A model generated the notes under the pieces. It ran no database searches, had not been told where the DNA came from, and saw only the letters and a program-made list of their open reading frames with translations. Of a stretch of 64,000 bases of DNA, positions 23,731 to 41,063 are shown one piece after another. The position numbers and the translations under genes are program-made. Positions within the stretch are counted from its first letter, which is position 1. Every line of letters begins with the position of its first letter. The DNA is from a virus: IMG/VR virus record IMGVR_UViG_3300006916_000041, positions 64,001 to 128,000 of that record; one strand, 5' to 3'.

Positions 23731-24461
23731 TGCGAGATTATCTTAAAGATATTGTGCAACACACACATGGACTTGGATTCATTGACCAAGCAAAAGTTGT
23801 TAACGAAGATGGTACAACTAACTTAGAAGCTATGGACGATGATCGCACTGTGATTGTGCAAGCAAAGTTCAAAGAGCAAGTACCAGGCTTAGATGGCACA
23901 TTTGGTTTGCCCAATCTCAGCAAACTAAACGTTCTTCTAAACATTGAAGAATACAAAGAAAATGCAAACATCACTGTGAATACACAAGATCGCAATGGTG
24001 AAACTGTTCCATTTGGATTGCATTTTGAAAATGCAAACGGCGACTTTAAAAATGACTATCGCTTTATGAGCAAAGAAGTTGTTGAAGAAAAACTAAAAAG
24101 CGTTAAGTTCAAAGGCGTGAATTGGGATATTACTATGGCACCCAACAGCGCAAGCATTGCACGTTTTAAAATGCAAGCACAAGCCAACAGTGAAGAAACT
24201 GTTTTTGTTGCAAAAACTGAAGGCAATGATCTAAAGTTTTTCTTTGGTGATAGCAGTACACACGCAGGTAACTTTGTGTTTGCGGCAGGCGTTGAAGGTC
24301 AGTTGAACACCGGTTGGAGTTGGCCCGTAGCACAAGTATTGAGCATTCTCAACTTGCCTGGTGATATCACTATGAAGTTTAGTGATGCAGGTGCAGCAAT
24401 GATTACAGTAGACAGTGGTATGGCAACTTATGACTATATCCTGCCAGCACAGAGTAAGTAA
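23730..24461 (+). CDS. sliding clamp (gp45/PCNA-like)
   Basis: size, position after polB, C-terminal MITVDSGMATYDYILPA. Confidence 0.7.
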   Translation: MRDYLKDIVQHTHGLGFIDQAKVVNEDGTTNLEAMDDDRTVIVQAKFKEQVPGLDGTFGLPNLSKLNVLLNIEEYKENANITVNTQDRNGETVPFGLHFENANGDFKNDYRFMSKEVVEEKLKSVKFKGVNWDITMAPNSASIARFKMQAQANSEETVFVAKTEGNDLKFFFGDSSTHAGNFVFAAGVEGQLNTGWSWPVAQVLSILNLPGDITMKFSDAGAAMITVDSGMATYDYILPAQSK

Positions 24462-26035
24462 TGATCCATAATGAACACACAGACTTAACAAGTACACAGG
24501 ACGACTTTGCTGTATTCTTGCCAGCACTGAGTACTTTCTACGCTCTATTTGTAGGGCGACAGCGGCGAGGCTTAGAACCATTAGATGAAAACAAGAAAGG
24601 TAGTGGGGAACCATATATCCCACTCGAGCGAATCCCCTCGCACCTCACCCATGGCGTAGAAAGTATCAACTGGCTTGCAAAGGAAGGCTTGTTTAGATAC
24701 AAGTGGAGTTTGCACAGTGCAGGACACGCAAGTCTTGATTTACAAAAAGACATGTACAGAGAAAGTCAGTACAGAGAGCGTGACAGAGAATACAGTTGGC
24801 TACTAGGCGACAGTGGAGGCTTCCAAATTGGTAAAGGCAAGTGGGAAGGTGACTGGCGCAAAGGTAGCGGCTGTCCTCAAGCACAAAAGAAACGTGATGG
24901 TGTTCTAAGATGGATGGATGCCTTTATGGACTATGGTATGATCTTGGATATTCCAGCCTGGGTTGCACGTAGTCCAGAAGGTGCGGCTGCAAGTAAAATC
25001 AGCAGTTATCAAGAAGCAGTAGAAGGCACACAAGAAAACAACGAATATTTTATCAAGCATCGTAATGGTAATTGTAAATTTTTGAATGTACTGCAAGGTG
25101 AAAACTTTGCACAAGCTGATGACTGGTACAATCAAATGAAACACTTTTGCGATCCCAAGCAGTATCCAGATGCACACTTTAATGGATGGGCTATGGGTGG
25201 GCAAAACATGTGTGACATTGAACTAGCACTCAAGCGATTAGTTGAACTAAGGCATGATGGATTGCTTGAAGAAGGACTACATGATGTTATGCACTTCTTG
25301 GGTACAAGTAAACTAGAGTGGGCATTGGTACTTACAGCAATACAGCGTGGTGTTCGCAAGTATCACAATCCTAAATTTACTGTAACATTTGATTGTGCAA
25401 GTCCTTTCTTGTGTACAGCAAACGGACAATTTTACACAAACTGGCGTTTGGATCAAGACAGCAAATGGAGTTACATGATGCAAGACGCTCCAGATGACAA
25501 AGCATATAAAAACAGTACAATGACATTTGATGACATGTGTACACAAATGTATCCAGAATTTCAAAGTAGTCCAATGAGCAAAGGACTTATGTTAAACGAC
25601 ATTTGTTATTATGCTCCAGGTGATAAAAATAGAATGGGTACCGAAACAGCTACAAGTTGGGATAGTTTTGCATATGCACTTATGATGAATCATAATGTTT
25701 GGACACACATTAAAAGTGTACAAGAAGCAAATCGTGCATTTGACCAAGGTCAGTATCCTAGTATGATGGTAGATACTAGCTTGGACAAAGTTGAAGTAGC
25801 TGATGTAGTTATGAGAGTTTTCGAAGAAAGCGACAAAGGAAAAGCCTTGCAAATTATCGAAGATCATCGTAAACTATGGATGAAAGTAATTGGCACTAGA
25901 GGACATGTTGGTAGAAAAACTATTAATGCCAGTGCGCAACTAGAAGCACACTTTGAAGGTGTTGAGTTTGCTGGTGCTAAAGAAAAAAGAGAGAAACCTC
26001 AATTAACGAGTAACTTTAATGCACTCTTTGACTAA
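24461..26035 (+). CDS. TGT-fold guanine transglycosylase, DpdA-like (probably DNA-acting)
   Basis: TGT motifs in order: DSGGFQ, MILD, VLQG, GWAMGG, HFLG, FDCASP, HN; no CxCxxC Zn motif; coupled to clamp gene. Confidence 0.82.
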   Translation: MIHNEHTDLTSTQDDFAVFLPALSTFYALFVGRQRRGLEPLDENKKGSGEPYIPLERIPSHLTHGVESINWLAKEGLFRYKWSLHSAGHASLDLQKDMYRESQYRERDREYSWLLGDSGGFQIGKGKWEGDWRKGSGCPQAQKKRDGVLRWMDAFMDYGMILDIPAWVARSPEGAAASKISSYQEAVEGTQENNEYFIKHRNGNCKFLNVLQGENFAQADDWYNQMKHFCDPKQYPDAHFNGWAMGGQNMCDIELALKRLVELRHDGLLEEGLHDVMHFLGTSKLEWALVLTAIQRGVRKYHNPKFTVTFDCASPFLCTANGQFYTNWRLDQDSKWSYMMQDAPDDKAYKNSTMTFDDMCTQMYPEFQSSPMSKGLMLNDICYYAPGDKNRMGTETATSWDSFAYALMMNHNVWTHIKSVQEANRAFDQGQYPSMMVDTSLDKVEVADVVMRVFEESDKGKALQIIEDHRKLWMKVIGTRGHVGRKTINASAQLEAHFEGVEFAGAKEKREKPQLTSNFNALFD

Positions 26036-26888
26036 AGCATTGATTGTAGGCACTGGCTTTGGCAGTCTCTACAAACAAATATACCAAGACATGAATGTTG
26101 CTGTAACCACAGTGGACATTGCAGATCCCAATGCCGACTATAAGCATGTGTATCAAGCACTGCAACAAGGTCTAGTGCATTGGGATGTATGTCACATTAC
26201 AACTCCAAACTACACACACTATCCACTAGCAGACCTTTGTGCAAACTTTTGTGACATTGTATTTGTTGAAAAGCCTGGTGTAGATGATCCAGAGCTTTGG
26301 GAAGAACTGTTGACAGATCATCCCAATACACGTATTATGATGACCAAAAACAATCAATACAGAGACAATGTACATCAAATACGTGAAGCAGCAAGTCAAG
26401 GTCAAGTGCGTATCAATTGGATCAATGACAACAGAGTACCCAAGCCAGGCAGTTGGTTTACTACAAAAAAACTAGCATTTGGTGGTGTGAGCAGAGACTT
26501 GATGCCACACTTGTTGAGCTGGGTACAAGTATTAGAACCAGACTGGTTGCATATGAAACCCAAGTTCAGTCGCTGTGATCAGAAATGGACATTACAACAT
26601 TTGACAGGAAGTGATTATGGTGCTATAAATTATAAAGGCACATATGATGTAGATGATATGTGTTACATTGATCTTGGTAGATACAATCTACACGCAGATT
26701 GGCGCAGCGGCACAGGAGACGACATTGCTATACACACAGACAAAGTTAGTTTTCAACTAGGACTATGTCCTGAAAGTGCATACGAAGCAATGATACGTAT
26801 TGCACACGAGAACCTAAATAATGATGAGTTTTGGAACAAGCAAAAGGACATGGATCTATGGATTCACCGGATCTTAAACAACCTGTAA
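26019..26888 (+). CDS. Gfo/Idh/MocA family oxidoreductase
   Basis: GTGFG Rossmann, TPNYTH, VFVEKP, GGVSRDLMPH. Confidence 0.85.
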   Translation: MHSLTKALIVGTGFGSLYKQIYQDMNVAVTTVDIADPNADYKHVYQALQQGLVHWDVCHITTPNYTHYPLADLCANFCDIVFVEKPGVDDPELWEELLTDHPNTRIMMTKNNQYRDNVHQIREAASQGQVRINWINDNRVPKPGSWFTTKKLAFGGVSRDLMPHLLSWVQVLEPDWLHMKPKFSRCDQKWTLQHLTGSDYGAINYKGTYDVDDMCYIDLGRYNLHADWRSGTGDDIAIHTDKVSFQLGLCPESAYEAMIRIAHENLNNDEFWNKQKDMDLWIHRILNNL

Positions 26889-27775
26889 GACAGTTAGTAA
26901 CCAGAGGCAATGGTGTATTCATCGAACAAGACTATTTGGTGCCCATGTTACTCAAAGATGAAATACGTGTTCGTGCAATAATGACAGGTGTTTGTCGCAG
27001 TGACATTGACATGATGACAGGTGACTTTACACTATTGCCCACAGAAATGCATGGACACGAAGGCTTGGGTCAAGTAATTGCAGTAGGCAATGATGTTGAT
27101 GATTGCGGAATTGGCGATTATGTTGCTACCAGAGGCGAGCCTGCATATGCAGATATTTACAATTGCAAGAAAGGCACATACTGTGTAGTTCCAGAAGCAC
27201 ATCCAGATTATATAATTGAACCTGTAGCATGTGCAGTTAACATGGAGTTGGTTTGTCAACAAGAACTTACGCAACGAGATGGCGGTAGAATGCTGATTAT
27301 TGGCACAGGATTTCTTGCTAGAGTATTTCACCAAACTGTAATAGAACAAGGATACGATTATCAAATTGATGTAATAGGCAAAAGCAATGCTGATTATTGG
27401 GGCACGGAAATGCTGGTTGACGGCAGCTATGCAAAGTATGACGTAGTAGTAGATCTCAAAGGTGAAGACAAAATTAAGTTTGTTAAAGTTAACCCTAATG
27501 CACTTGTGATAATGGCTAGTGCGCCGCACAGAGAATATAATTTTCCTCTCGAAGATTGGCTGTGGAATAATGTTACAATCAAAATGCCAAGTCCGAGAGC
27601 AGAAACATTTCACAGTGCTATGAAACTAGCAACACGCATGGTAGCTCAAGGAAAGATAGAGCTTGACAATGTATGGACACGTGAGTATAATAGAGAAACA
27701 AATTGGCAACAAGCATTCAGTGATGCACTAACTAGACCTGAAGGCTACAATAGAGGTTATATCAAATGGGATTAG
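26858..27775 (+). CDS. Zn-dependent medium-chain (polyol/sugar) dehydrogenase
   Basis: GVCRSD, GHEGLG, GDYV, IEPVAC, IIGTG; lacks the 4-Cys structural Zn lobe. Confidence 0.82.
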   Translation: MDSPDLKQPVRQLVTRGNGVFIEQDYLVPMLLKDEIRVRAIMTGVCRSDIDMMTGDFTLLPTEMHGHEGLGQVIAVGNDVDDCGIGDYVATRGEPAYADIYNCKKGTYCVVPEAHPDYIIEPVACAVNMELVCQQELTQRDGGRMLIIGTGFLARVFHQTVIEQGYDYQIDVIGKSNADYWGTEMLVDGSYAKYDVVVDLKGEDKIKFVKVNPNALVIMASAPHREYNFPLEDWLWNNVTIKMPSPRAETFHSAMKLATRMVAQGKIELDNVWTREYNRETNWQQAFSDALTRPEGYNRGYIKWD

Positions 27776-28278
27776 ACACAGACGAACGTCAGGACGTAGT
27801 TTATTTTATTGGCACAGAAGTTGAACGCACAGCAATGTATGGAGAAAAAACTCTGTTTGTGGTTGGTATTCAGCCTTGGGAAGATATCCAAAAACGTGCA
27901 GACGAACATGGCATTCGACATTTATATTTTGGTACCAGTCAAAGTTTTCATCCTAAAAACGATGAGGACTATGATATGTGGGAATCTATGATCAAACCTT
28001 TACTTAAACTAGGATACTGGTGTACATTAGACTTCGGTGTAGAGTATGCATCGGATGTACTTGAATGTGGGTTTGACGAACATGATAACTACATTAGTAT
28101 GATAAGTGTTAAACTTCCATACATTAAACAATTCAACTATAATGCAACACTTAAATTAGATGACACAACATGGGGTAAAAGCAATCCAGGCGTATGGTGC
28201 CACAGTGTGCATGACTTAATGGATCGCTCGGTTTACACAGACTGGCGAGACTATGTTGGTGATACGGTAATCGAATGA
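27766..28278 (+). CDS. hypothetical protein in the deazaguanine cluster
   Basis: 170-aa ORF overlapping neighbours on both sides. Confidence 0.75.
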   Translation: MGLDTDERQDVVYFIGTEVERTAMYGEKTLFVVGIQPWEDIQKRADEHGIRHLYFGTSQSFHPKNDEDYDMWESMIKPLLKLGYWCTLDFGVEYASDVLECGFDEHDNYISMISVKLPYIKQFNYNATLKLDDTTWGKSNPGVWCHSVHDLMDRSVYTDWRDYVGDTVIE

Positions 28279-28715
28279 ACGGAAATAAACGAATAGGATT
28301 TACATGTAGCACATTTGATTTGTTACATGCAGGACATATTGCTATGCTCAGAGAAGCCAAAGAGCATTGTGATTATCTTATTGTAGGGTTACAAACAGAT
28401 CCTACAATTGATAGACCAGATACAAAAAACAAACCTGTGCAAAGTTTAGTAGAACGCTACACACAATTATCAGGTGTAAAGTATGTGGATGAAATTATTC
28501 CTTATCAAACTGAACAAGATTTAGAAGATATACTAGCCATGTATCATATAACAGTAAGAGTTCTTGGTGAAGAATATCGTGAAAAGGAATTTACAGGCAA
28601 AGATGTTTGCCGCAAGCGTGGTATTGAATTATATTTTAACAAAAGAGATCATAGATTTAGTACTACAGATCTAAGGGAAAGAGTAAGTAATGAGCCCCGT
28701 GGAAAACCGCATTAA
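28275..28715 (+). CDS. TagD-like (glycerol-3-phosphate) cytidylyltransferase
   Basis: STFDLLHAGH, LIVGLQ, ER...VKYVD, RFSTT. Confidence 0.88.
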   Translation: MNGNKRIGFTCSTFDLLHAGHIAMLREAKEHCDYLIVGLQTDPTIDRPDTKNKPVQSLVERYTQLSGVKYVDEIIPYQTEQDLEDILAMYHITVRVLGEEYREKEFTGKDVCRKRGIELYFNKRDHRFSTTDLRERVSNEPRGKPH

Positions 28716-28866
28716 TAAACTTGTAAAAGAGCACAGAATGCTTGACACAGAAATAAAACGACTATACAATACAACAAATAGCGAAAAAACATTAAAAGCT
28801 ATGAAACAACGCAAACTCAAACTTAAAGATGAGATAACTAAACTCAAAGGAGATACAAATGGTTAA
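28690..28866 (+). CDS. DUF465/YdcH-like coiled-coil protein (58 aa, not in ORF track)
   Basis: LVKEHRMLDTEI...MKQRKLKLKDEI. Confidence 0.7.
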   Translation: MSPVENRINKLVKEHRMLDTEIKRLYNTTNSEKTLKAMKQRKLKLKDEITKLKGDTNG

Positions 28867-29086
28867 AAAAATTCGTGTATTAGACGAGCCAGTACAAGAA
28901 GTTTCAGAAGAAGTAACTTTGGAAACTATGCATGAACTGGCAAAGACCATGGATTGGAAGCTGTGGGAAATACTGCAAATTATGCAACGATTTGAAAAGA
29001 AAATCAGTGTGCTAGATGGTGCTGGTATACCAGATGAAGAAGTCAGTTCTAAACAATCGACAAAACCCAAAGTTGTTAAAAAATAA
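28859..29086 (+). CDS. hypothetical protein
   Basis: SD AAGGAG; MDWKLWE motif. Confidence 0.65.
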   Translation: MVKKIRVLDEPVQEVSEEVTLETMHELAKTMDWKLWEILQIMQRFEKKISVLDGAGIPDEEVSSKQSTKPKVVKK

Positions 29087-29550
29087 TGTTAGATCGAGTC
29101 GAACCAGAACGCTATTATGAATGGATGCTCTGGAAGATGAGACAGGAAGATGCAAAAATGCAAAAATTAAAAAAAACTAGTAGCATGATTTGGGTTACAT
29201 TTCGCAAAGAAGGTTTACACAAATATCCTGCGGCACTAGATGATCCGAAGCTAGCTACAGGCGGGGCAGATGATGTTAGCTTTTTAGGCTATATTCATAG
29301 ACACATGTTTCACTTTAAAGTTGCAATTGAGGTGTTTCATGATGATCGTGATATTGAATTTATACAATTTAAACGTTGGTTAGAGAATCTATATGCAGAG
29401 GGTACACTGCAATTAGATTTTAAAAGCTGTGAGATGATCTGCGATGATCTTGCAGAAAGTATTAACAACAAGTACCCGGGAAGAAAACTTAACATCACTG
29501 TCAGTGAAGATGGTGAAAACGGCGCAACCATTGAATACGAGGTATCATAA
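29086..29550 (+). CDS. queD: QueD/PTPS-like T-fold enzyme
   Basis: EGLH, HRH, SCE, VSEDGENGA T-fold Zn motifs; context with folE and queE. Confidence 0.72.
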   Translation: MLDRVEPERYYEWMLWKMRQEDAKMQKLKKTSSMIWVTFRKEGLHKYPAALDDPKLATGGADDVSFLGYIHRHMFHFKVAIEVFHDDRDIEFIQFKRWLENLYAEGTLQLDFKSCEMICDDLAESINNKYPGRKLNITVSEDGENGATIEYEVS

Positions 29551-29552
29551 TT

Positions 29553-29858
29553 ATGCGACAACACCGTATTAGTATTAACGATATTAAATACGATCTCATC
29601 AAGATCATCGAACCCCACGATGGTCGTTTGGAAACCAAAGAATCAGGTGGGGCAAAAGTTGAAAAACTTTTTGATTCTTATCTCAGAGATTTGCGCAGAG
29701 CTGGAATGATTCAACACTATGATATTGAAGTTACCCAGCGTCCTACAGCATTTACCTATGACGTAAGTGTTAAAGTAAATGCTGACAGAAGTCCTAAAAA
29801 ACTTAAAATACACGTTGGTGTATTTACACAACCTTGGACACAAAAGTCAGCAGCATGA
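29553..29858 (+). CDS. hypothetical protein
   Basis: 101-aa ORF. Confidence 0.6.
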   Translation: MRQHRISINDIKYDLIKIIEPHDGRLETKESGGAKVEKLFDSYLRDLRRAGMIQHYDIEVTQRPTAFTYDVSVKVNADRSPKKLKIHVGVFTQPWTQKSAA

Positions 29859-30955
29859 CAGTCTATATTATAGATATCGAGGCTGTTGACACACGCTACA
29901 CTGCACAGTGGAAGGAACATCTTCCCGAGCAGTTGCGCAACCGCACTGATGATGTAGTTGTTATCAGCGGCGGGGAAACGCCTCAGGCTACTACGCCTGG
30001 GGCATTTCTTAATTTTGGAGGCACTAATGTATACAAATCTAATCAACTTGAGCAATTGGGTAGACTGTTCTGTGAAGGGAAAATTAACGATGGCGATTAT
30101 TTCCTTTACACTGATGCTTGGAATCCTACTGTTATTCAGTTACGATACATGGCTAGCCTTCTTGGCACAGATATTACTATCGGTGGCATGTGGCATGCCG
30201 GTAGCTATGATCCTCAAGACTTTCTTGGACGACTAATCGGCGATGCAGCATGGGTAAGACATGCTGAGAAAAGCATGTTCTGGTGCTATGATCACAACTA
30301 CTTTGCAACAGAGTTTCATTTAAACTTGTTTGCTGAGAACTTGCTAAACTACAAAGGTATGTTTGGTATGACAGCGGCAGAGACACTCAAAGACAGCAAT
30401 GATAATATTGTTATCACAGGATGGCCCATGGAGTATATGCAGGACATATTGCTTCCATATAAAAACATGGAAAAGCGTAACACAGTAGTATTTCCGCACA
30501 GACTAGCACCTGAGAAACAACTGGATATTTTTAAAGATTTGGCAACACAGTTACCAGAATACGAATTCATAGTTTGTCAGGAACAACAATTGACAAAAAA
30601 TGAATACCATAATATACTTGGTGAAGCTAAGGTAGTGTTTAGTGCTAACTTGCAAGAAACACTGGGTATTAGCGCATATGAAGGTGCGTTAGTAGGAGCC
30701 ATTCCTATGATGCCTAATAGACTCAGCTATACAGAAATGTATGATGACGAATTCAAGTATCCAAGTGAATGGACAGAAAGTTGGGATAGTTATCAAAAGA
30801 ACAAAACCAAGATTGTCCAAAAGTTAAAAAATTACATGGAAAATCACAATAATTATCACAACATGTTAAATACAGAGTCAGCACGTTTGACACAGAATTT
30901 TTTCAGTGGCAATCGTATGTATGACACAATAACACAAAGTGACACACCACTATAA
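29855..30955 (+). CDS. GT-B glycosyltransferase
   Basis: WHAGSYD, VFPHRLAPEK, QETLGISAYEG, P..LSYTE (GT4-like E-x7-E). Confidence 0.82.
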   Translation: MTVYIIDIEAVDTRYTAQWKEHLPEQLRNRTDDVVVISGGETPQATTPGAFLNFGGTNVYKSNQLEQLGRLFCEGKINDGDYFLYTDAWNPTVIQLRYMASLLGTDITIGGMWHAGSYDPQDFLGRLIGDAAWVRHAEKSMFWCYDHNYFATEFHLNLFAENLLNYKGMFGMTAAETLKDSNDNIVITGWPMEYMQDILLPYKNMEKRNTVVFPHRLAPEKQLDIFKDLATQLPEYEFIVCQEQQLTKNEYHNILGEAKVVFSANLQETLGISAYEGALVGAIPMMPNRLSYTEMYDDEFKYPSEWTESWDSYQKNKTKIVQKLKNYMENHNNYHNMLNTESARLTQNFFSGNRMYDTITQSDTPL

Positions 30956-30968
30956 CTCGGAGCAATTA

Positions 30969-31652
30969 ATGGAAAAATCAAAAGAACTAAAGGCACGCCT
31001 TGACGATGCAGGCATTCGTTATTGGGCGGGCGATAATATCTCCTCAGTAATGCAACCAGGAGACAAAGAAGAACTTATCGAAGAACTTACAGATAAGTTT
31101 GAAGCAGTACTAGACAGTTTAGTAATCGACAGACACACTGACCCAAACAGTATGGATACTGGTCGTAGACTTGCTAAAATGTATGTTAAAGAACTGATGG
31201 CAGGACGTTATGATCCAATGCCCAATGCAACAGCATTTCCCAATCACACAAATGACAGGTACACAGGTATGCTAGTGGTTCGCAGTGAACTTGTTAGTAT
31301 GTGCAGTCATCACCATCAACCAGTAAAAGGAGTTGCGTATATAGGACTTATCGCAGCAGACACACTTATTGGGTTGAGCAAGTATACTCGTATTGCACAG
31401 TGGTGTGCAAGACGTGGTACATTGCAAGAAGAACTTGCAATGGACATTGCCCGCGAAATTATGAAAGCAACGGGCAGTGAAGATGTTGGCGTATATATCC
31501 AAGCAACACATGGTTGTTGTGAAAATAGAGGTATTATGGCAACTAGTAGTTTAACACAAACCACTGTACTCAAAGGCGCTTTTAACAGCGACATGGGTAC
31601 TAAAAAAGAATTTATGGACAATATTAAACTACAACAAGAATATACACGATAA
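30969..31652 (+). CDS. folE: GTP cyclohydrolase I
   Basis: SMCSHH, GLSK, LQEE, HGC.ENRG. Confidence 0.95.
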   Translation: MEKSKELKARLDDAGIRYWAGDNISSVMQPGDKEELIEELTDKFEAVLDSLVIDRHTDPNSMDTGRRLAKMYVKELMAGRYDPMPNATAFPNHTNDRYTGMLVVRSELVSMCSHHHQPVKGVAYIGLIAADTLIGLSKYTRIAQWCARRGTLQEELAMDIAREIMKATGSEDVGVYIQATHGCCENRGIMATSSLTQTTVLKGAFNSDMGTKKEFMDNIKLQQEYTR

Positions 31653-31702: not shown

Positions 31703-32794
31703 TTGAAACTATTTAAATTACTTACTGCCGCTTTAGTAGCGGCTGGTCTCTTTGTTTCTCCTGCAGCGTCGAAAGATAAAGTGAAAGTAGGTTTTATCTA
31801 CGTGGGACCAATTGGTGACCACGGCTGGACTTACCGACATGATATTGGACGTCAACAAGTAGAAGAAGCATACGGAGATCGTGTTGAAACAACTTATATC
31901 GAATCAGTACCAGAAGGTGCAGATGCTGAACGTGTACTAACACAAATGGCTCTGCAAGGACATGACATTATTTTTGCTACTTCATTTGGATATATGGATG
32001 CAGTGGAAACTGTTGCTAAGAAGTTTCCAAACACAAAATTTGAACATGCAACAGGCTACAAAACAAACGGCGTGAACAGTTCAAACTATGGACTAAGACT
32101 ATACCAAGCAAGACACGTACAAGGTGTTATTGCAGGTATGATGACCAAAACAAACAAAATTTGTTATGTAGCAGCGTATCCAATTCCAGAAGTTATCCGT
32201 GAGATCAACACATACTATCTTGGTGCCAAATCAGTTAACCCTGACGTTGATATCGACATAGTATGGGTATTCACTTGGTATGATCCAGCAAAAGAACAAG
32301 ATGCGGCTGTTGCTCTAATGGGCCAGGGCTGTGATGTGATTGCACAACACACAGACTCGCCTGCTCCACTACAGGCAGCAGAAGTCCAAGGCAAGATTGG
32401 CTTTGGCCAGGCATCAGACCAAATCAAGTTTGCGCCTAAAGCACAACTTACAGCAACAATTGACAACTGGGGTCCGTACTATGTTGAAAAAGTAGGACAG
32501 GTACTAGACGGTACTTGGACACCAATGTGTGATGGTCCAGACGGATGCTACTTTGGACACATGAATGATGGTTCAGTTGAAATGGCACCATTTACAAATA
32601 TGCCAGCCGACGTGGCAGCAAAAGCACAGGAAATCAAAGATGCTATTACAGCAGGAGAATACTTTGCTTTCACTGGTCCATTAAATGACAATCAAGGCAA
32701 TCAAGTGTTGGCAGCAGGCGAAGTTGCTGATCGTGCGCATCTAGACACTATGATGTACTATGTCGAAGGTATTGATGCAACGGTGCCTAACTAA
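31703..32794 (+). CDS. BMP-family ABC substrate-binding protein (purine/nucleoside type), exported
   Basis: signal peptide; KVGFIYVGPIGDHGW, ATSFGY, WYDP, QHTDS, NWG.YY. Confidence 0.9.
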   Translation: MKLFKLLTAALVAAGLFVSPAASKDKVKVGFIYVGPIGDHGWTYRHDIGRQQVEEAYGDRVETTYIESVPEGADAERVLTQMALQGHDIIFATSFGYMDAVETVAKKFPNTKFEHATGYKTNGVNSSNYGLRLYQARHVQGVIAGMMTKTNKICYVAAYPIPEVIREINTYYLGAKSVNPDVDIDIVWVFTWYDPAKEQDAAVALMGQGCDVIAQHTDSPAPLQAAEVQGKIGFGQASDQIKFAPKAQLTATIDNWGPYYVEKVGQVLDGTWTPMCDGPDGCYFGHMNDGSVEMAPFTNMPADVAAKAQEIKDAITAGEYFAFTGPLNDNQGNQVLAAGEVADRAHLDTMMYYVEGIDATVPN

Positions 32795-33657
32795 TGATTC
32801 CAGTAATTGATTTAAAAGCATCGGACGCTTTAGATCGCATTGACGAAGCTTACACCACTGTAGGCTTCGCAGTGTTTACAAATGCGTTGGATGCAGAAGA
32901 CAGTACAGATATGAAAAACTGGCAACAACAAATGAAAACATTTTTTGACTTGCCATTGGAAACAAAAAAGCAGTATCCTTATGAAGGTGATACCAACTTG
33001 GGTTACAGCATTATGGGTGCAGAGAATGTAGATCCTACAGCACCAAAAGATATTAAAGAATCATTTAACTATAATAATATGCGTATGCCTGAACACTTGT
33101 GGCCAACCGAACTAGAAGGCTTTAAGCAAAGTGCATTAGAAAGTATTGATATTGCAGATAGACTTACACTGCGTATCTTGGGCAAGTTTGATGAAATACT
33201 GGACACAGGTACTACACTTGTAGATGCACACAGTGAACCATTCAATACTACACGGGTTATACATTATCCTGCGTATGATGGACCTGTTGAAGATAAACAG
33301 ATGCGCATAGGAGAACACAGTGACTACGGTACTATTACTTTACTATGGCAGATTAATGACGTACCTGGACTTGAAGTGCAAGACTTATCTGGGAATTGGC
33401 ATCCCGTCCCATATGCGGATGACGGTGTTGTTGTTAATATTGGTGATCTACTTCAGCGTTGGACTAATGATTATTTCAAAAGCACTAAGCATAGAGTTGT
33501 AAACAGTCATATACATCAACAGCGTTATAGTATGCCACACTTTGTTGATCCTACACCTGGAACTATTGTAAGCAATTTACGCAAAGGTGAAGCAGCAAAG
33601 TACGATCCAATTGAATCAAAAGAATATTTGATGTGGCGACTAGCACAGAGTTACTAA
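32794..33657 (+). CDS. IPNS-family 2OG-Fe(II) dioxygenase
   Basis: IPVIDL, HSDYG, VNIGDLL..WTN, HRV, RYS. Confidence 0.9.
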   Translation: MIPVIDLKASDALDRIDEAYTTVGFAVFTNALDAEDSTDMKNWQQQMKTFFDLPLETKKQYPYEGDTNLGYSIMGAENVDPTAPKDIKESFNYNNMRMPEHLWPTELEGFKQSALESIDIADRLTLRILGKFDEILDTGTTLVDAHSEPFNTTRVIHYPAYDGPVEDKQMRIGEHSDYGTITLLWQINDVPGLEVQDLSGNWHPVPYADDGVVVNIGDLLQRWTNDYFKSTKHRVVNSHIHQQRYSMPHFVDPTPGTIVSNLRKGEAAKYDPIESKEYLMWRLAQSY

Positions 33658-34155
33658 ATGACAGATGAAATACAAATATATGACGATTATCTAGCAAGCC
33701 AAGAACTTGATAATCTACAAAACTTGTTTTTTAACAATACAGATTTTCCTTATTTCTTTAATAATCATAAAGTTGACCAGGGAGATGGGTTTTCACAATT
33801 TACTCATCAATTCTATATAAACAATACCATTAATAGTAATTTTTACAATTATTTAAGTTGTATACTAGATAAGATAGATCCGTTGGCTATTATAGGAATT
33901 AAAGCAAACTTGCAAATGAAAACCAAAGAAATCAAAACAACACCCATGCATCAAGATTATGCTAACACGCTAGACAATCAAAAAACTGGAATATTTTATG
34001 TAAACACAAACAATGGTAAAACTATATTCGAGGACGGACAAGAAATTTCTAGTGTTGCTAATAGATTGATTGTTTTTCCAGCAAAAAGATATCATGCAGG
34101 AACCACTCACACAGATGCAGATTATAGATGTGTTATTAACTTGAATTGGTTTTAA
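33658..34155 (+). CDS. phage 2OG-Fe(II) oxygenase
   Basis: HQD...NRLIVF...HAG...RCVINLN. Confidence 0.75.
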   Translation: MTDEIQIYDDYLASQELDNLQNLFFNNTDFPYFFNNHKVDQGDGFSQFTHQFYINNTINSNFYNYLSCILDKIDPLAIIGIKANLQMKTKEIKTTPMHQDYANTLDNQKTGIFYVNTNNGKTIFEDGQEISSVANRLIVFPAKRYHAGTTHTDADYRCVINLNWF

Positions 34156-34413
34156 ATGAGGGTATTAACCATGCACAGTACAAGCGGTAGTATCATCCAA
34201 GCAAACGATGACCAAATTGATATGAAAACTGACTTGATTGTCAAAGGCAGAAACATACTAAATGAACTTGACAATCTACACCGACATATGCTATTATTAC
34301 CAAGAGATCAGAAATTACAAGACAAGTATCCTGAACTCAAACAAGCGTATGACGCATACAATGAGTTGTACAGAGAAATCCTTATAGCAGATAAGATGAT
34401 GAACAATGATTAA
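34156..34413 (+). CDS. hypothetical protein
   Basis: KYPELKQAYD motif; coupled. Confidence 0.6.
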   Translation: MRVLTMHSTSGSIIQANDDQIDMKTDLIVKGRNILNELDNLHRHMLLLPRDQKLQDKYPELKQAYDAYNELYREILIADKMMNND

Positions 34414-34417
34414 AAAA
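34385..34417 (+). repeat. 33-bp direct repeat, copy 1 (copy 2 at 34965-34997)
   Basis: TAGCAGAT[A/G]AGATGATGAACAATGATTAAAAAA, 1 mismatch. Confidence 0.9.
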
Positions 34418-34993
34418 TACTGTATGCAAGATTATTATTATGTTTCTACAGTAAAGGAACATCTTGATTATAAGATAAAGTTAATTGATGCTATAGAATC
34501 TATGCCTAGTCACGAATCCTTTAAACCGTATGAGAATTTAACAAATCAAGATTATAGATTACCAGAAGATTTTCCTAGACCATATTTAGATTTATTTTAC
34601 GAAATGGTTGTTCCATATGTAAAAGATTTAGGAAATTTATTAGGATTTTATGCCTGGCAAATACATAATGCATGGTTTCAACAATACTACAATAACGATT
34701 CTCACGATTGGCACAATCACGCTTGTGTAAATTTTACTAATATATATTACTTAGAACTTCCTAGTCAAGAGTTAGTAACAGAACTATATGATCCTCATAG
34801 CAAGAAAATTGTTAATCTTGAAGGAATAGAAGAAGGACAGTTTGTTACATTTCCGGGTCATTGGATACACCGATCACCAAAAAATCTAACAAATGAAAGA
34901 AAAACAATTGTAGCATTTAACACTAGTTACGGAGAAGTAGATTTTGAATCTATTAATAAAGCATTAGCAGATGAGATGATGAACAATGATTAA
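34406..34993 (+). CDS. phage 2OG-Fe(II) oxygenase (repeat-flanked)
   Basis: WFQQY...HDWHNH...YYL...EG....FP....HRS...RKTIVAFN. Confidence 0.75.
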   Translation: MIKKYCMQDYYYVSTVKEHLDYKIKLIDAIESMPSHESFKPYENLTNQDYRLPEDFPRPYLDLFYEMVVPYVKDLGNLLGFYAWQIHNAWFQQYYNNDSHDWHNHACVNFTNIYYLELPSQELVTELYDPHSKKIVNLEGIEEGQFVTFPGHWIHRSPKNLTNERKTIVAFNTSYGEVDFESINKALADEMMNND

Positions 34994-34997
34994 AAAA
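34965..34997 (+). repeat. 33-bp direct repeat, copy 2
   Basis: matches 34385-34417. Confidence 0.9.
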
Positions 34998-35570
34998 CAT
35001 AGATACAGTTGGCAAGACGTAGAAAAAATGTGTGTACAGATTGTAAATCAAATGTATGCAGACAGATGGAAGCCTGATTACATTGTAGGCATTACACGAG
35101 GTGGTAATATTCCTGCAACTATTATTAGTAACATGACTGGTATTCGTTGCGAAGCTCTCAAAGTAAGCCTGCGTGATGATGACCGTGAAAGCGAAAGTAA
35201 CTGCTGGATGGCAGAAGATGCATTTGGTTATGTACAAGAATATGACAGAGCAGGTATATTTGAAAAATCAACTAGTGATCCTGCAAAGAAAAAGAACATA
35301 CTTATTGTAGATGACATCAACGACACTGGTGCTACATTCAATTGGATTATGCAGGATTGGCAAAGTGGTTGCTTGCCTGATCATCCAAATTGGGACACTG
35401 TTTGGAATCAAAATGTTCGTTTTGCAACACTAACAGACAACCTAGCCAGTGAATTCACAGAGCATTGTGCGTATACATGTCATGAAATTAATAAAGCTGA
35501 AGAAGATGTTTGGCTGGTTTATCCTTGGGAAGATGTAGGAGAATACAATGTGGACACTTTGGATTATTAG
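34986..35570 (+). CDS. purine (xanthine/guanine-type) phosphoribosyltransferase
   Basis: VGITRGG, ILIVDDINDTGAT, WLVYPWE. Confidence 0.85.
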   Translation: MIKKHRYSWQDVEKMCVQIVNQMYADRWKPDYIVGITRGGNIPATIISNMTGIRCEALKVSLRDDDRESESNCWMAEDAFGYVQEYDRAGIFEKSTSDPAKKKNILIVDDINDTGATFNWIMQDWQSGCLPDHPNWDTVWNQNVRFATLTDNLASEFTEHCAYTCHEINKAEEDVWLVYPWEDVGEYNVDTLDY

Positions 35571-35712: not shown

Positions 35713-35954
35713 GTTTCGAATGGAATCGTATTCACAAATGGGAAGAAAATCTTGAACGTGATGCAACAGATGGCGTTTATGAATATGTATGTGAATACTA
35801 CGGAATCGACGATGTAGAAGAACTTACTGAAGAACAGCTAGCAGAAGTTGAAGCATTTAGAGATGAACTAAACGAATACAGTCTTATGCAAATTGGATTT
35901 AGCAACTTAATTAATCATGTAGAATCAATCCATTGGGAGAAAGAAAATGGGTAA
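35709..35954 (+). CDS. acidic hypothetical protein
   Basis: coupled ORF. Confidence 0.6.
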   Translation: MSFEWNRIHKWEENLERDATDGVYEYVCEYYGIDDVEELTEEQLAEVEAFRDELNEYSLMQIGFSNLINHVESIHWEKENG

Positions 35955-36717: not shown

Positions 36718-37265
36718 GAGGAAGACTAGAAGTTTATGCAGGTCCGATGTATGCCGGCAAAACCAGCAAACTGTTACAGCGTGTATTGTGGATTGACCAT
36801 CAACAAAAGAAAGTATTGTGCATAAAGCCTTCTAAAGACGATCGCTACAGTCAAGATACTATTGTAACACACAATCAGCTGAGTTATCCTTGTATAAGTA
36901 TCAGTGAGTTTGATGAAATAGAAGAACACTACAACATCATGCCCTATAACTTTAATACAGTAGTATTAGACGAAGTGCAATTCATGAACGCTAAAGAAAC
37001 CGTCGAAGGTGTTGAACTGTGGTTGCACAGTGGCGTAAATGTAATTGCCGCAGGACTAGATCAAGACTCAAGAGGTGTACCTTTTGAAACAACCAGTCAA
37101 CTACTAGGACTTGCTGACTGTGTTGAAAAGATAACAGCCATATGCACAACTTGCGGCAAAGAAGCCACAAAAACTTATAGAGTAAAAGCACAAGGTGAAC
37201 GTATTCAAGTAGGTAGCATGGGCATGTACGAACCAAGATGTCTTGAACATTGGGAGCCAAAATAA
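36714..37265 (+). CDS. tdk: thymidine kinase
   Basis: GPMYAGKT, DDRY, LDEVQF, AGLD, CxxC, YEPRC. Confidence 0.93.
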   Translation: MRGRLEVYAGPMYAGKTSKLLQRVLWIDHQQKKVLCIKPSKDDRYSQDTIVTHNQLSYPCISISEFDEIEEHYNIMPYNFNTVVLDEVQFMNAKETVEGVELWLHSGVNVIAAGLDQDSRGVPFETTSQLLGLADCVEKITAICTTCGKEATKTYRVKAQGERIQVGSMGMYEPRCLEHWEPK

Positions 37266-37801
37266 TGATCAGATGGGAAGATTATATAAGAACAATACCA
37301 AATTATCCACAAGAAGGTATTAATTTTTACGACCTTAACAGTTTGTTTGCTGGGCCTATGTTTAGCAAAGCAGTACAAGAAATGACTAAGAAAGTAACTG
37401 AATATACAGACAATCCTACACACATTGTAGGTGTTGAAAGTAGAGGATTTGTACTAGGTGCAGCTATAGCACACGAATTAAACTTACCTTTTGTGATGGT
37501 ACGTAAAAAAGGTGCTAAGTATCCCGGTGAATTATTAGAGCAAAGCTATGATTTAGAATATGGTAGTGCAACACTTACACTGCAAACAGGACTGTTAGGT
37601 CACACAGACCGTTGTGTTATTGTAGATGATTTGGTTGCTACCGGTGGTAGTATGATGGCCACAAGAGACTTAGTAAAACAAACAGGTGCGAAAGTTCTAC
37701 GAGGTGTTACTGTGATTGATTTGGTATATGTAAGAAGAGATATCGATGCAAGTTTAGATTTTCCTGTTAGCGCACTAGAAACGGTATGGAACAATGAGTG
37801 A
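37265..37801 (+). CDS. apt: adenine phosphoribosyltransferase
   Basis: ESRGF, RKKG, YDLEYG, VDDLVATGGS. Confidence 0.92.
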   Translation: MIRWEDYIRTIPNYPQEGINFYDLNSLFAGPMFSKAVQEMTKKVTEYTDNPTHIVGVESRGFVLGAAIAHELNLPFVMVRKKGAKYPGELLEQSYDLEYGSATLTLQTGLLGHTDRCVIVDDLVATGGSMMATRDLVKQTGAKVLRGVTVIDLVYVRRDIDASLDFPVSALETVWNNE

Positions 37802-37919
37802 ATGGTATGATGTAATAATTGCAAATATTTTGTTTTGGCCTATCTATATTTGGATGTGCAGTTTACCTGCTAAAATGTTTGAGTATAGTATAAACAATTT
37901 TGATAAGGTAAAACGATGA
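37794..37919 (+). CDS. small hydrophobic protein (41 aa, not in ORF track)
   Basis: MSEWYDVIIANILFWPIYIWMCSLP...; fills gap, overlaps both neighbours. Confidence 0.5.
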   Translation: MSEWYDVIIANILFWPIYIWMCSLPAKMFEYSINNFDKVKR

Positions 37920-38101
37920 AGTATACAAAACAAGGTGAAAATAGTTGGCTTGTAGAAGTGCAAGAAAACAGTAAAACCAAAGAGCTGTACATCGAATTTC
38001 CCCCTGATGCACTTAATCAAGTTGGTTGGGATGAAGGAGATACACTAATCTGGGAAGAATTGCCAAGTGGTGCATGGAGTGTAACAAAAAAATGCACATA
38101 G
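37916..38101 (+). CDS. AbrB/MazE-like small protein
   Basis: LYIEFP....QVGWDEGDTLIW. Confidence 0.6.
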   Translation: MKYTKQGENSWLVEVQENSKTKELYIEFPPDALNQVGWDEGDTLIWEELPSGAWSVTKKCT

Positions 38102-38859
38102 GTGTAGTCGGATGTGGCTTTGTAGGAGGCACAGTTGCTGAATACTTAGAAAGTCAATACATAAACGTTTGTAGAGTAGATCCAAAACTTTATCCTAACA
38201 CAACGTTAGATGATATCAAAGAAACTTGTGAAGGGTTTATACTTTGTTTACCTACACCCCAAGGCGAAAACGGTGTATGTGATGATAGTGCTATTGTACA
38301 AGTATTAGAACAATTAAACACAACTAAGCCTGTACTACTCAAAAGCACAGTAACTCCTGATTTACTTGCAAAATATCCTAACAATGTCACGTACAATCCA
38401 GAATTTTTGAGAGCAGCTCATGCTAAAGAAGATTTTGACAATCAAGAAATTTTTATATTAGGTAGCGACAACGAACAACACATACAGTTTTGGGAGGACT
38501 TGTTCAAAAGTCTAAATACACGAGTAGTGCAAACAAACCGTACTACAGCAAGTATGATAAAGTATGTTCACAATGCATGGTTAGCTACTAAGGTAGCATT
38601 TTTTCATGAAGTGTTTGCAAATGCACCCAAGGATATGAACTACAGTATGTTAACAAGTACACTAGCACAAATGCGTAACATCGGCCCAAGTCACATGATG
38701 GTACCCAACAGTAAACAAACACTTGGTTTTGATGGCTATTGTTTTCCCAAGGACACAAAAGCCTTGACAGAATTTATGGATCATACTATACTAGAACAAG
38801 TCATAACCACAAACAAGCGTCTAAATAAAAGGAATGTTAATGAAAGAACCAAGAGTTGA
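38092..38859 (+). CDS. UDP-glucose 6-dehydrogenase-like (lacks C-terminal domain)
   Basis: GCGFVG, CLPTP, KSTV, NPEFLR, KYVHN, GYCFPKD. Confidence 0.85.
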   Translation: MHIGVVGCGFVGGTVAEYLESQYINVCRVDPKLYPNTTLDDIKETCEGFILCLPTPQGENGVCDDSAIVQVLEQLNTTKPVLLKSTVTPDLLAKYPNNVTYNPEFLRAAHAKEDFDNQEIFILGSDNEQHIQFWEDLFKSLNTRVVQTNRTTASMIKYVHNAWLATKVAFFHEVFANAPKDMNYSMLTSTLAQMRNIGPSHMMVPNSKQTLGFDGYCFPKDTKALTEFMDHTILEQVITTNKRLNKRNVNERTKS

Positions 38860-39010
38860 AAAATTAATTGAAGAGCTAAGATCAAGTGTTGAAAGAATCA
38901 ATCGCTTGGACAAGCTACTACAACAGTCTGGTGTAACATACAGTTTAAGTCGTAGCACACGTGACGAACCTTTTAAATTACAAGATGTAGTACAGAAAGT
39001 AGAGTATTAA
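38840..39010 (+). CDS. small hypothetical protein (56 aa, not in ORF track)
   Basis: MKEPRVEKLIEEL...; TAATG coupling to queE. Confidence 0.55.
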   Translation: MKEPRVEKLIEELRSSVERINRLDKLLQQSGVTYSLSRSTRDEPFKLQDVVQKVEY

Positions 39011-39903
39011 TGAAACTAAGATACAGTGAAGCATTTTACAGCGTACAAGGTGAAGGCAAATACGTAGGCGTACCCAGTGTATTCCTACGTACTTTTGGTT
39101 GTAACTTTCGCTGTATGAACTTTGGACTTCCCAAAGACAAAGATCGTTGGGAGCAACATCAAGAAGGCAATCGTTATAATCCAGAAGTAAAGGAATTAAT
39201 AGATAAAGGTGTACATTTAACAACTGTAAACTTTGAAGACTTGCCTATTATTCACACAGGTTGTGACACATATGCAAGTATCTATCCAGAGTTTAAGCAT
39301 TTTAATAAACAAGCTACTGTAGATGAAGTTGTAGATCATTTGATTAGTTTACTGCCAGAAGGTAAATGGACACAGGATAATGGTCAAGATATACATTTAA
39401 TTCTCACAGGCGGTGAACCTTTACTAGCATGGCAAAAATTATACGTCGAATTATTCGAGCATCCAAAGATGAAGGACTTGAAAAATGTCACATTTGAAAC
39501 AAACACTACACAACTATTACACGACGATCTGTTCGAGTATATCAATAATAATGACACAATTGAATGGACATTTAGTTGTAGCCCTAAACTTTCCGTCTCA
39601 GGAGAAACTTGGGAAACAGCTATCAAACCTGACGTCTTGCGGGATTACGCTCGTTGTGACAACAGTAATGTTTATCTCAAATTTGTTGTTGCTGATATGG
39701 ATGATGTTGATGAAGTTGGTAGAGCTGTTATGGAATATCGTAGTGCAGGTGTGGAGTGCCCTGTCTATCTTATGCCACTTGGCGGTCGTTCAGAAGGATA
39801 CGACCTTACGGTACAGGAGGTGGCGAAGTTATGTATGGAACAAGGCTGGAGATTTACCCCAAGACTCCACATCAGCTTATTCGGAAATGCCTGGGGAACT
39901 TGA
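39010..39903 (+). CDS. queE: 7-carboxy-7-deazaguanine synthase (radical SAM)
   Basis: EAFYSVQGEG, FLRTFGCNFRC...GCDT, TGGEP, ETN, SPKL, RLH. Confidence 0.92.
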   Translation: MKLRYSEAFYSVQGEGKYVGVPSVFLRTFGCNFRCMNFGLPKDKDRWEQHQEGNRYNPEVKELIDKGVHLTTVNFEDLPIIHTGCDTYASIYPEFKHFNKQATVDEVVDHLISLLPEGKWTQDNGQDIHLILTGGEPLLAWQKLYVELFEHPKMKDLKNVTFETNTTQLLHDDLFEYINNNDTIEWTFSCSPKLSVSGETWETAIKPDVLRDYARCDNSNVYLKFVVADMDDVDEVGRAVMEYRSAGVECPVYLMPLGGRSEGYDLTVQEVAKLCMEQGWRFTPRLHISLFGNAWGT

Positions 39904-39974
39904 TAAGATTGCCAAATACACCAAAGGCATACACACCGAAGAGCAATACGAAAAAATAAGGAAACAATTATAAC

Positions 39975-41063
39975 ATGAACAATTACATTTTTACTAGCGA
40001 AAGTGTTAGCGAAGGACACCCAGATAAAGTTGCAGACCAAATCTCAGACGCACTCGTTGATGCTGGTTTAGCAGCGGGAGATGAAACAACTCGTGTTGCT
40101 GTTGAAACACTTGTAACTACCAATCATGTAACATTGGCGGGCGAAGTAAAAAACTTCAATGTAAGCAAAGAAAAAATTAAAGAAATTGTACGCAACAAAG
40201 TTCGAGAGATTGGCTATGAGCAAGATGGTTTCCATTGGGATAATTTAAATATCTATAATGAAATTCATGCTCAAAGCGGTGACATTGCACTAGGTACAGA
40301 TGATTTTGGAGCAGGTGATCAAGGTATTATGTTTGGCTATGCTTGTAATGACAATGACGCATATATGCCAGCACCGATTTATTACTCGCACGAAATTCTA
40401 AAACGTTTGTGTGATATGCGCAAAGACGGTTATGAATACCTAGGACCAGACGCTAAATCACAAGTAAGTGTTGAATACGAAGGCGGGCGTGTAAAGCGTA
40501 TTGACCAAGTTGTTGTAAGTCAACAGCACCGCGAAGGGTTTGGAAATAGTGCTGTTATGCCAATTCGTGATGCTGTAAATGAAACATTAGGAGATTTGAT
40601 TGATAAAAATACTGTATGGCATATTAATCCTACAGGTAACTTTGTTATTGGCGGTCCAGATGGCGATGCTGGTGTCACTGGGCGCAAAATTATCGTTGAT
40701 ACTTATGGCGGTTTTGCCCCTCACGGTGGTGGTGCTTTTAGTGGAAAAGATCCTACAAAAGTAGATCGCAGTGCAGCATACATGGCACGTTGGCTTGCCA
40801 AAAATGTAGTAGCAGACGACATGGCAGATTGGTGTCAAATACAACTTAGCTATGCTATAGGTGTTAAAGAGCCGACGAGTATCTATGTTGATTCAAATGG
40901 ACATAATCGTTCAATTCAAAAGTTTATTGAGAACAATATTGACTTAACACCAAAAGGTATTATTGATAGATTTGACTTATTTAACTTTACACAGTATAGT
41001 AGTAACTGTACATATGGACACTTTGGAAACAAAGATGTTCCTTGGGAACGTATAGGTTGGTAA
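39975..41063 (+). CDS. metK: S-adenosylmethionine synthetase
   Basis: SESVSEGHPDK, GAGDQG, GGGAFSGKD. Confidence 0.96.
   Translation: MNNYIFTSESVSEGHPDKVADQISDALVDAGLAAGDETTRVAVETLVTTNHVTLAGEVKNFNVSKEKIKEIVRNKVREIGYEQDGFHWDNLNIYNEIHAQSGDIALGTDDFGAGDQGIMFGYACNDNDAYMPAPIYYSHEILKRLCDMRKDGYEYLGPDAKSQVSVEYEGGRVKRIDQVVVSQQHREGFGNSAVMPIRDAVNETLGDLIDKNTVWHINPTGNFVIGGPDGDAGVTGRKIIVDTYGGFAPHGGGAFSGKDPTKVDRSAAYMARWLAKNVVADDMADWCQIQLSYAIGVKEPTSIYVDSNGHNRSIQKFIENNIDLTPKGIIDRFDLFNFTQYSSNCTYGHFGNKDVPWERIGW

Follow-up and report, generated by a model that had tools for sequence, protein, structure and literature searches.

The window analysed here is a 64,000-nucleotide stretch of DNA (positions 64,001 to 128,000 of IMG/VR record IMGVR_UViG_3300006916_000041, one strand, 5' to 3') taken from a 172-kb viral record with a CheckV completeness of ~48%, whose source is an uncultured jumbo (giant aquatic) phage. 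Between 20.5 and 41 kb the + strand carries a single co-directional gene run in which a transglycosylase-fold gene, genes for 7-deazaguanine synthesis and a glycosyltransferase (GT) gene follow the DNA polymerase gene, and we rate the chances as about even that this region is a replisome-linked module for glycosylated 7-deazaguanine modification of DNA. The run begins with polB, a clamp-like gene, the transglycosylase candidate (referred to here as DpdAx), Gfo-like and Zn-ADH genes, the conserved gene unk170, a cytidylyl/adenylyltransferase gene, DpdL, the GT and FolE, and continues after FolE with Bmp/PnrA, three 2-oxoglutarate (2OG)-Fe(II) oxygenases, a phosphoribosyltransferase (PRTase), thymidine kinase, an adenine phosphoribosyltransferase, a UDP-sugar dehydrogenase-like gene, QueE and MetK. 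The features are listed below with the evidence for each call.

20538-23237, + strand: family B DNA polymerase, given for context (Pfam DNA_pol_B, E 3e-33)
23730-24461, + strand: sliding-clamp-like protein (phrog_12062, E 7e-39)
24461-26035, + strand: candidate DpdA-like transglycosylase (DpdAx), 524 aa (tRNA-guanine transglycosylase (TGT) fold in a predicted model)
26019-26888, + strand: Gfo/Idh/MocA-like oxidoreductase, a weak call, accessory (sub-threshold Pfam matches, E 1e-3)
26831-27775, + strand: Zn-dependent medium-chain dehydrogenase, accessory (ADH_N, E 5e-10)
27766-28278, + strand: unk170, a conserved 170-aa core member (present in 41/41 relatives)
28275-28715, + strand: cytidylyl/adenylyltransferase (RfaE domain II / TagD-like), accessory (CTP_transf_like, E 1e-15; rfaE_dom_II, E 4e-24; TagD, E 1e-18)
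29086-29550, + strand: DpdL, a 154-aa T-fold QueD paralogue (LxxxHRHxF signature)
29855-30955, + strand: GT4-like GT-B glycosyltransferase (family matches to Glycos_transf_1; E-x7-E motif)
30939-31652, + strand: GTP cyclohydrolase I, FolE (Pfam E 5e-38, NCBIfam E 8e-41)
31703-32794, + strand: Bmp/PnrA substrate-binding lipoprotein (E 1e-50)
34986-35570, + strand: divergent xanthine/guanine-type PRTase, near-core (Pribosyltran, E 2e-12)
38074-38859, + strand: truncated UDP-sugar dehydrogenase-like protein, accessory (UDPG_MGDP_dh N and central domains only)
39010-39903, + strand: QueE, 7-carboxy-7-deazaguanine (CDG) synthase (five NCBIfam QueE models, E 1e-8 to 1e-11)
39975-41063, + strand: S-adenosylmethionine (SAM) synthetase, MetK (three MetK Pfam domains, E 3e-33 to 6e-58)
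58093-58653, + strand: short QueC-like PP-loop protein, 186 aa (Pfam QueC, 34.5 bits against a cut-off of 22, C-terminal part only)

An earlier, sequence-only reading of this window had given a gene list that was mostly right, but two of its labels were wrong and it had passed over the three 2OG-Fe(II) oxygenases, the two phosphoribosyltransferases and the thymidine kinase. Its central observation, that a TGT-fold enzyme stands together with the genes of a de novo CDG pathway and adjoins replisome genes, was borne out by our analysis.

The TGT motifs that had been picked out in the 524-aa DpdAx reading frame are present (GDSGGFQ at residues 117-122, MILD at 160-163, LQG at 211-213, MGG at 244-246 and FDC at 310-312), and an AlphaFold2 model of the protein, built from 62 diverse relatives (pLDDT 90, pTM 0.90), returned nothing other than tRNA-guanine transglycosylases among the top 50 Foldseek matches (E ~2e-6). 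When compared with 2ash by VIA-align, the model gave a Z of 18.2 and a root-mean-square deviation of 4.5 over 306 residues. Residues D117, S118, G120, H278 and D311 are invariant in the 62 representatives and D163 is at least 90% conserved, and we take the Asp residues to be the equivalents of D102, D156 and D280 in the Z. mobilis TGT. Neither DpdAx nor a profile of the 62 sequences found a match in Pfam, PHROG, NCBIfam or PDB sequences, and the Pfam TGT model PF01702 had no match to DpdAx or across the genome, with two of the 62 relatives matching at E 0.04. It should be noted that PF01702 also misses the accepted DpdA proteins of the phages ACP17 and BUDD. Only structure and profile-profile comparison tie DpdAx to TGT.

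Identities within the TGT superfamily are 12–20%, which is too low for a reliable tree, and DpdAx was placed by profile comparison instead. Using hhalign, it could be aligned with E. coli Tgt across all of the catalytic motifs (probability 90%, E 1.8e-6), with the ACP17 DpdA (probability 97%, E 5e-10) and, in part, with phiST gp042, which we take to be DpdA3 (E 1.3e-5); the gene is therefore nearer to a phage DpdA than to E. coli Tgt, in agreement with the DNA-acting role first suggested for it. The absence of the tRNA-TGT zinc motif was also confirmed, as only two columns of the family alignment reach 50% Cys and these are far apart, and without a conserved Cys cluster the zinc site (CxCxxC...H) is absent. 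Searches with DpdAx using tblastn recovered only PA5oct-like phages, Vibrio phage 2.275.O and Phosso, and did not reach any phage in which DpdA1, DpdA2 or DpdA4 is known. Judged from the predicted model and the profiles, DpdAx is a divergent and as yet unnamed DpdA-like family which seems to fall in no named DpdA subfamily tested, and the name 'DpdA5' was not found in the literature searched. The family is large (over 7,900 clusters when grouped at 90% identity), and its more distant contexts were sampled in cultured phages and by a second scan of viral sequences. In Phosso, the DpdAx homolog lies ~170 kb away from the DpdL–GT–FolE–QueE cluster. Vibrio phage 2.275.O (L002:8914-16000) has DpdAx with QueF, a YhhQ-type transporter, QueC, an amidotransferase-like gene and FolE, and has no DpdL or GT; this suggests that the DpdAx family serves a preQ1- or G+-type pathway too.

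The coupling of DpdAx to the clamp gene after polB, also part of the sequence-only reading, is evident in the overlap of the DpdAx start codon with the stop codon of the clamp-like gene (TAATG). The product of 23730-24461 is a putative sliding clamp judging by its homologs, as it shares 40% identity with PA5oct EST35_0314 and is homologous to a Phosso gene annotated as a sliding clamp. DpdAx ends in SNFNALFD and the polymerase in TFDSLFDFT, and 96 of 119 close DpdAx homologs, along with 11 of 62 distant homologs, have a [FLMIY]xx[LMF]F motif among their 12 C-terminal residues (against a background of 0.9% per 12-residue window); we take this tail motif to resemble a clamp-binding peptide. In the Pseudomonas jumbo phage PA5oct, the DpdAx homolog likewise follows polB and the clamp gene, and QueE is found 3 kb downstream. 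A search of PA5oct with the Pfam TGT model found nothing else, making DpdAx the obvious candidate for the transglycosylase missing from that phage. The virion DNA of PA5oct is resistant to enzymes with G-containing sites, from which its authors inferred an unidentified modified G, and they found QueE and a PTPS-like gene and named no transglycosylase (PMC12191111). We regard the part of our proposal that puts a deazaguanine into DNA as very probable. A module making a free glycosylated 7-deazapurine similar to huimycin, or one modifying tRNA and not DNA, is very improbable in comparison: the huimycin GT does glycosylate a free 7-deazaguanine base (PMC7439116), but the genes considered here lie in a polB–clamp operon, the tRNA-TGT zinc site is absent, PA5oct virion DNA resists restriction at G sites (PMC12191111), and in a genome-mining survey the secondary-metabolite clusters were found without dpdA.

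The identifications of FolE (Pfam E 5e-38) and MetK are solid, and MetK probably supplies SAM for QueE. The QueE protein is divergent, and the original call is supported by matches to five NCBIfam QueE models (E 1e-8 to 1e-11), all of them far below their cut-offs, and by 30% identity to the PA5oct QueE (E 1.6e-33). Its radical-SAM cysteines are split, with Cx3C followed by ~49 aa before the next C. Split cysteines of this sort (Cx3C, ~45-50 residues, GCD(S/T)) are common to PA5oct, BUDD and BUCT-ZZ01 (L001:13469-14341, L091:10858-11751, L092:2224-3084), and the compact CxxxCxxC is kept in the QueE proteins of ACP17 and Phosso.

The gene at 29086-29550 had been labelled QueD-like and should be renamed DpdL, as its FLGYIHRHMF fits LxxxHRHxF and not the CxxxHGH of QueD. 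The former motif defines DpdL, the proposed CDG decarboxylase of phages making 2'-deoxy-7-deazaguanosine (Cui, Hutinet et al., NAR 2023, PMC10516641), and the protein shares 58% identity with the ACP17 DpdL, 57% with that of PA5oct and 32% with that of phiST. The genome also encodes a true QueD, located outside the window, 28 kb upstream. CDG had been suggested as the inserted base, or as the parent of a derivative; given the DpdL signature, 7-deazaguanine (DG) is the more likely base. The statement that the cluster contains no queC holds for the deazaguanine genes, but a short QueC-like reading frame is found elsewhere in the window (58093-58653). This is part of a radical-SAM island, separated by 17 kb from the deazaguanine genes, and has SGGVES and a C-terminal CGxCxxC; it might make 7-amido-7-deazaguanine (ADG) or preQ0 or be unrelated, and its membership of the pathway is uncertain.

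The recognition of 29855-30955 as a glycosyltransferase rests on its family, in which 13 of 27 members match Glycos_transf_1 (best E 6.8e-12). An E-x7-E motif is found in ETLGISAYE, with E268 nearly invariant and E276 invariant, and presumably marks the family as GT4-like since we take this motif to be typical of GT4 enzymes. The end of the GT gene overlaps the start of folE, and the protein is 46% identical to PA5oct EST35_0317 and 36% identical to the ACP17 GT. The family is acidic with a median isoelectric point of 5.8 (4.9 for the GT in the window), which speaks mildly for the sugar being added to the free base, ahead of its insertion. A search gave at least 8,000 GT candidates, and another, directed at longer, fused forms of the GT, had no result (weak evidence). 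Two possible relationships were rejected: none of the 27 members has a DUF3524 match (E up to 0.1), as would be found in a QTMAN-type GT, and a GT4 relative from PhiXhv phages is not an ortholog (27% identity over 65% coverage, in a GlmS/deacetylase context without deazaguanine genes).

We examined the association of the GT with the deazaguanine genes, which the sequence-only reading had pointed to, in two sets of viral loci, one of contigs anchored on DpdAx that extend 3.5 kb or more upstream and 5 kb or more downstream (n = 41), and another anchored on the GT and found with a profile whose lead sequence was a distant cyanophage member (n = 84). The GT was found in all 41 DpdAx-anchored loci, as were unk170 and DpdL, with the PRTase in 37 and FolE in 35. 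DpdL was identified in 79/84 GT-anchored loci, usually within a few hundred bases of the GT, and in the remaining five the GT is at the start of the fetched stretch with the usual DpdL side missing. At 50% identity the GT sequences form 12 clusters, all with DpdL nearby; ten of these hold metagenomic loci, and PA5oct and ACP17 are two singleton clusters with an adjacent DpdL. The TGT-like partner of the GT is DpdAx in 52 loci and of the ACP17 type in nine. Amongst cultured phages, the GT is beside or near DpdL in varied gene orders in PA5oct, ACP17, Phosso, BUDD, X1, BCSR5 and BUCT-ZZ01 (six of these lineages were checked in detail, and Xanthomonas phage X1 was assessed from tblastn coordinates), and no cultured phage record with a full-length GT ortholog was found without DpdL. 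The reverse does not hold, as phiST-like phages, RHph_I1_18, Ahp1 and Bakedbeans have DpdL and no GT. The GT therefore depends on DpdL and not the converse, as would be expected of an enzyme acting on the product of DpdL.

A number of other arrangements were seen around these genes. In Vibrio phage Bakedbeans, DpdL forms the C-terminal third of the 383-aa gp176 (L095:6218-7369), the N-terminal 260 residues of which showed no likeness to DpdA3, DpdAx or the GT. The cluster of cyanophage BUCT-ZZ01 includes a second GT (L092:5001-6344), and in PA5oct a fragment of an NAD-dependent epimerase/dehydratase adjoins DpdL (L001:12434-12952).

A rival explanation is that the DNA contains plain 2'-deoxy-7-deazaguanosine (dDG) as in phiST, and that the GT is part of the pathway without any sugar remaining on DNA, acting perhaps on a transient intermediate or carrier, a protein or another base. 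We consider this rather unlikely, though not lightly dismissed. In its favour, phiST makes dDG with FolE, QueD, QueE, DpdL and DpdA3 alone, DG offers no classical acceptor group, and the GT family is acidic. Against it, in every 50%-identity cluster the GT keeps to within a few hundred bases of DpdL, and it does so with two DpdA types, a pattern not easily accounted for unless the two share a substrate. Extra sugar genes also recur in these gene clusters.

The gene at 27766, for which co-occurrence with the deazaguanine genes had also been raised, is as constant in the 41 relatives as the GT. The unk170 protein is acidic, with invariant E18, E20, D89, D132 and D133, and a homolog is found in the ACP17 cluster (ASD50402, E 1e-26 to the profile). 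Its AlphaFold2 model (pLDDT 91) had no structural relatives above noise (best Foldseek E 0.03, and best Z 6.7 in a wide VIA search). A QueE-like assignment was rejected because the partial-barrel similarity (Z 6.5) is within noise, glycoside-hydrolase-like clusters in the ESM Atlas (0.89) were below the reliable range and not used, and the 'glycosylase' at the unk170 position in Phosso has no detectable relation to unk170.

The near-core PRTase has homologs in the PA5oct and BUCT-ZZ01 clusters, and its best NCBIfam match is to xanthine PRTase (E 5e-10), under the cut-off. The simplest reading is that it salvages the guanine released by base exchange; the alternative is phosphoribosylation of deazaguanine. 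The latter would allow a pre-replicative route in which an XGPRT-like PRTase makes a DG or CDG nucleotide that is reduced, phosphorylated and incorporated by the polymerase, leaving the TGT-like protein with some other role. PRTases build deazapurine nucleotides in the toyocamycin and tubercidin pathways, and this parallel, together with the near-core status of the divergent PRTase (37/41) and its presence in PA5oct and BUCT-ZZ01, is what can be said for such a route. We judge it improbable, as it does not account for a conserved TGT-fold enzyme with intact catalytic Asp residues and a clamp-binding-like tail, encoded next to the clamp gene; guanine salvage is also the simpler account of the PRTase. 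In the published view, every known deazaguanine modification of DNA is made after replication (PMC10516641).

The sequence-only reading had assigned the supply of a sugar or polyol-phosphate to the oxidoreductase pair and the cytidylyltransferase. The TagD-like cytidylyltransferase is real (CTP_transf_like, E 1e-15), as is the N-domain of the Zn-ADH (E 5e-10), but the Gfo/Idh/MocA call is based on sub-threshold matches (E 1e-3). Amongst the DpdAx-anchored relatives the pair was found in 12, with Zn-ADH always accompanied by the Gfo-like gene, and the nucleotidyltransferase in 23, usually upstream of the clamp gene; 11 had neither the pair nor the nucleotidyltransferase. As these genes are accessory and are absent from PA5oct and ACP17, they cannot form the general donor pathway. 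The UDP-glucose dehydrogenase-like gene thought to follow folE has to be relocated, as the gene there (31703-32794) encodes a Bmp/PnrA protein (E 1e-50) and the UDP-sugar dehydrogenase-like gene is found at 38074-38859. The latter encodes a 261-aa protein with a partial NAD domain, the central domain and no C-terminal UDP-binding domain, and was found in ten of the 41 relatives.

The wider layout of the locus provides some further observations. An 8.3 kb megablast comparison against phage records found no near relative. Between folE and the PRTase (31703-34993, + strand) the window has the Bmp/PnrA lipoprotein and three 2OG-Fe(II) oxygenases, a set common to one of 80 related loci, and other relatives have different 2OG oxygenases in this gap. 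Between the GT and QueE, relatives often have a HIT-domain protein (35 loci; L068:10450-10923) and sometimes an HhH-GPD DNA-glycosylase-family protein (seven loci; L017:15043-15483), neither of which is in the window. Sites resembling sigma-70 promoters were scored against TTGACA-N16-18-TATAAT, and the eight best, matching at 12/12 or 11/12 positions, are all on the + strand (window positions 20390, 23546, 26310, 27663, 28742, 30590, 34268 and 38764). Several directly precede module genes (polB, unk170, DpdL and QueE), and the total count of such sites was not above that in shuffled controls.

The pathway we propose starts with FolE, QueE and the QueD encoded elsewhere in the genome, which by homology convert GTP to CDG, from which DpdL may then produce 7-deazaguanine. 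DpdAx would exchange this for guanine in DNA, probably while held at the fork by its C-terminal clamp-binding peptide, and the xanthine/guanine-type PRTase may recycle the guanine released. The GT4-like enzyme would add a sugar to the deazaguanine, either as the free base before insertion or in DNA afterwards, with unk170 perhaps assisting. Candidate positions for the sugar are a C-glycoside at the C7 freed by decarboxylation, or an N2-glycoside of the kind HuiG makes. The eukaryotic TGT inserts the bulky base queuine, and this provides a parallel for an order in which the base is glycosylated first and inserted afterwards. The Gfo-like/Zn-ADH pair, the nucleotidyltransferase and the UDP-sugar dehydrogenase-like protein could be strain-specific additions supplying or varying the donor.

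Several points weigh against this proposal. The decarboxylase activity of DpdL is known by proposal only (PMC10516641), and the product of the QueC-like reading frame at 58093 could draw CDG off into ADG or preQ0. As phiST reaches plain dDG with DpdL and without a GT, the GT is not required for DNA modification. The GT of the window scores 16.5 bits against Glycos_transf_1 where the cut-off is 26.4, and the acidity of its family does not favour DNA binding. Finally, an O or N acceptor is not apparent at C7 of 7-deazaguanine, and a sugar on this base would need an unusual bond. On balance, a sugar on the deazaguanine base is a plausible inference from the gene content, which we would neither favour nor discount. 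The broader proposal is more tentative, at somewhat less than even odds: that a great many aquatic jumbo and T4-like phages, together with PA5oct, ACP17, Phosso, BUDD, BCSR5 and BUCT-ZZ01, carry glycosylated 7-deazaguanine in place of guanine, installed at the fork by a clamp-tethered, unnamed DpdA subfamily and with a donor that varies between strains.

The sugar-bearing DNA bases in the literature we searched are all pyrimidines, and we found there no glycosylated deazaguanine in DNA, no name for the DpdAx family and no comment on the ACP17 GT. If correct, the proposal would add a new chemical class, glycosylated deazapurines, to the known DNA modifications, and with it the first DNA purine to carry a sugar. 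It would also provide a candidate chemistry for the unidentified modified G of PA5oct, a phage studied against P. aeruginosa infection and in biofilm models, and a name for its missing DpdA. DpdL and DpdA alone gave no dDG in E. coli, for which the need for further module genes would be one possible reason. The proposal bears on restriction evasion, sequencing artefacts in marine viromes and enzymes for DNA labelling, it concerns large protein families (DpdAx and the GT both number in the thousands, as given above), and it is testable in phages already in culture.

The module can be compared with known deazaguanine pathways and with glycosyltransferases acting on related bases. The phiST system (FolE, QueD, QueE, DpdL and DpdA3), which yields DNA with plain dDG (PMC10516641), shares the same precursor genes, a DpdL with LxxxHRHxF, a TGT-superfamily enzyme and the absence of QueC and QueF from the cluster. 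It differs in having no GT, unk170 or PRTase, and its DpdA3 is a remote protein of 259 aa, whereas DpdAx has 524 aa and a clamp-binding-like tail, and its gene is coupled to that of the clamp. Acidovorax phage ACP17 (with a cluster of QueD, FolE, ASD50402, DpdA ASD50403, ASD50404, DpdL and QueE) has homologs of unk170, the GT, DpdL (58%), QueD (53%), FolE and QueE, but its DpdA is a 424-aa protein of another subtype. The ACP17 DpdL and DpdA have been used in published work in which the GT goes unmentioned (PMC10516641), and no report of ACP17 DNA chemistry was found in the literature searched. PA5oct (Wroclawvirus) retains the order polB, clamp-like gene, DpdAx (29% identity), GT (46%), DpdL (57%), PRTase and QueE, but neither unk170 nor sugar-donor genes were detected, and an epimerase/dehydratase fragment is present instead.

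At the level of individual proteins, Tgt and DpdA1-4 share with DpdAx the TIM-barrel fold and the DSGGFQ, LD, QG, GG and FDC motifs in the same order, with DpdAx differing from Tgt in falling below the Pfam TGT threshold and in having no zinc-binding Cys/His cluster. The role proposed for the phage GT can be likened, by function and domain description, to those of HuiG and of QTMAN and QTGAL from eukaryotic tRNA modification, as in each case the acceptor is a 7-deazaguanine derivative. QTMAN differs in acting on the queuosine side chain in tRNA, and its DUF3524 is in none of the 27 phage GTs. HuiG, which has a GT4-type Pfam domain (PF13439), makes an N2-glycoside on a free 7-deazaguanine base in huimycin synthesis (PMC7439116), and differs from the proposed phage enzyme in using free methylated preQ0 base and in belonging to secondary metabolism.

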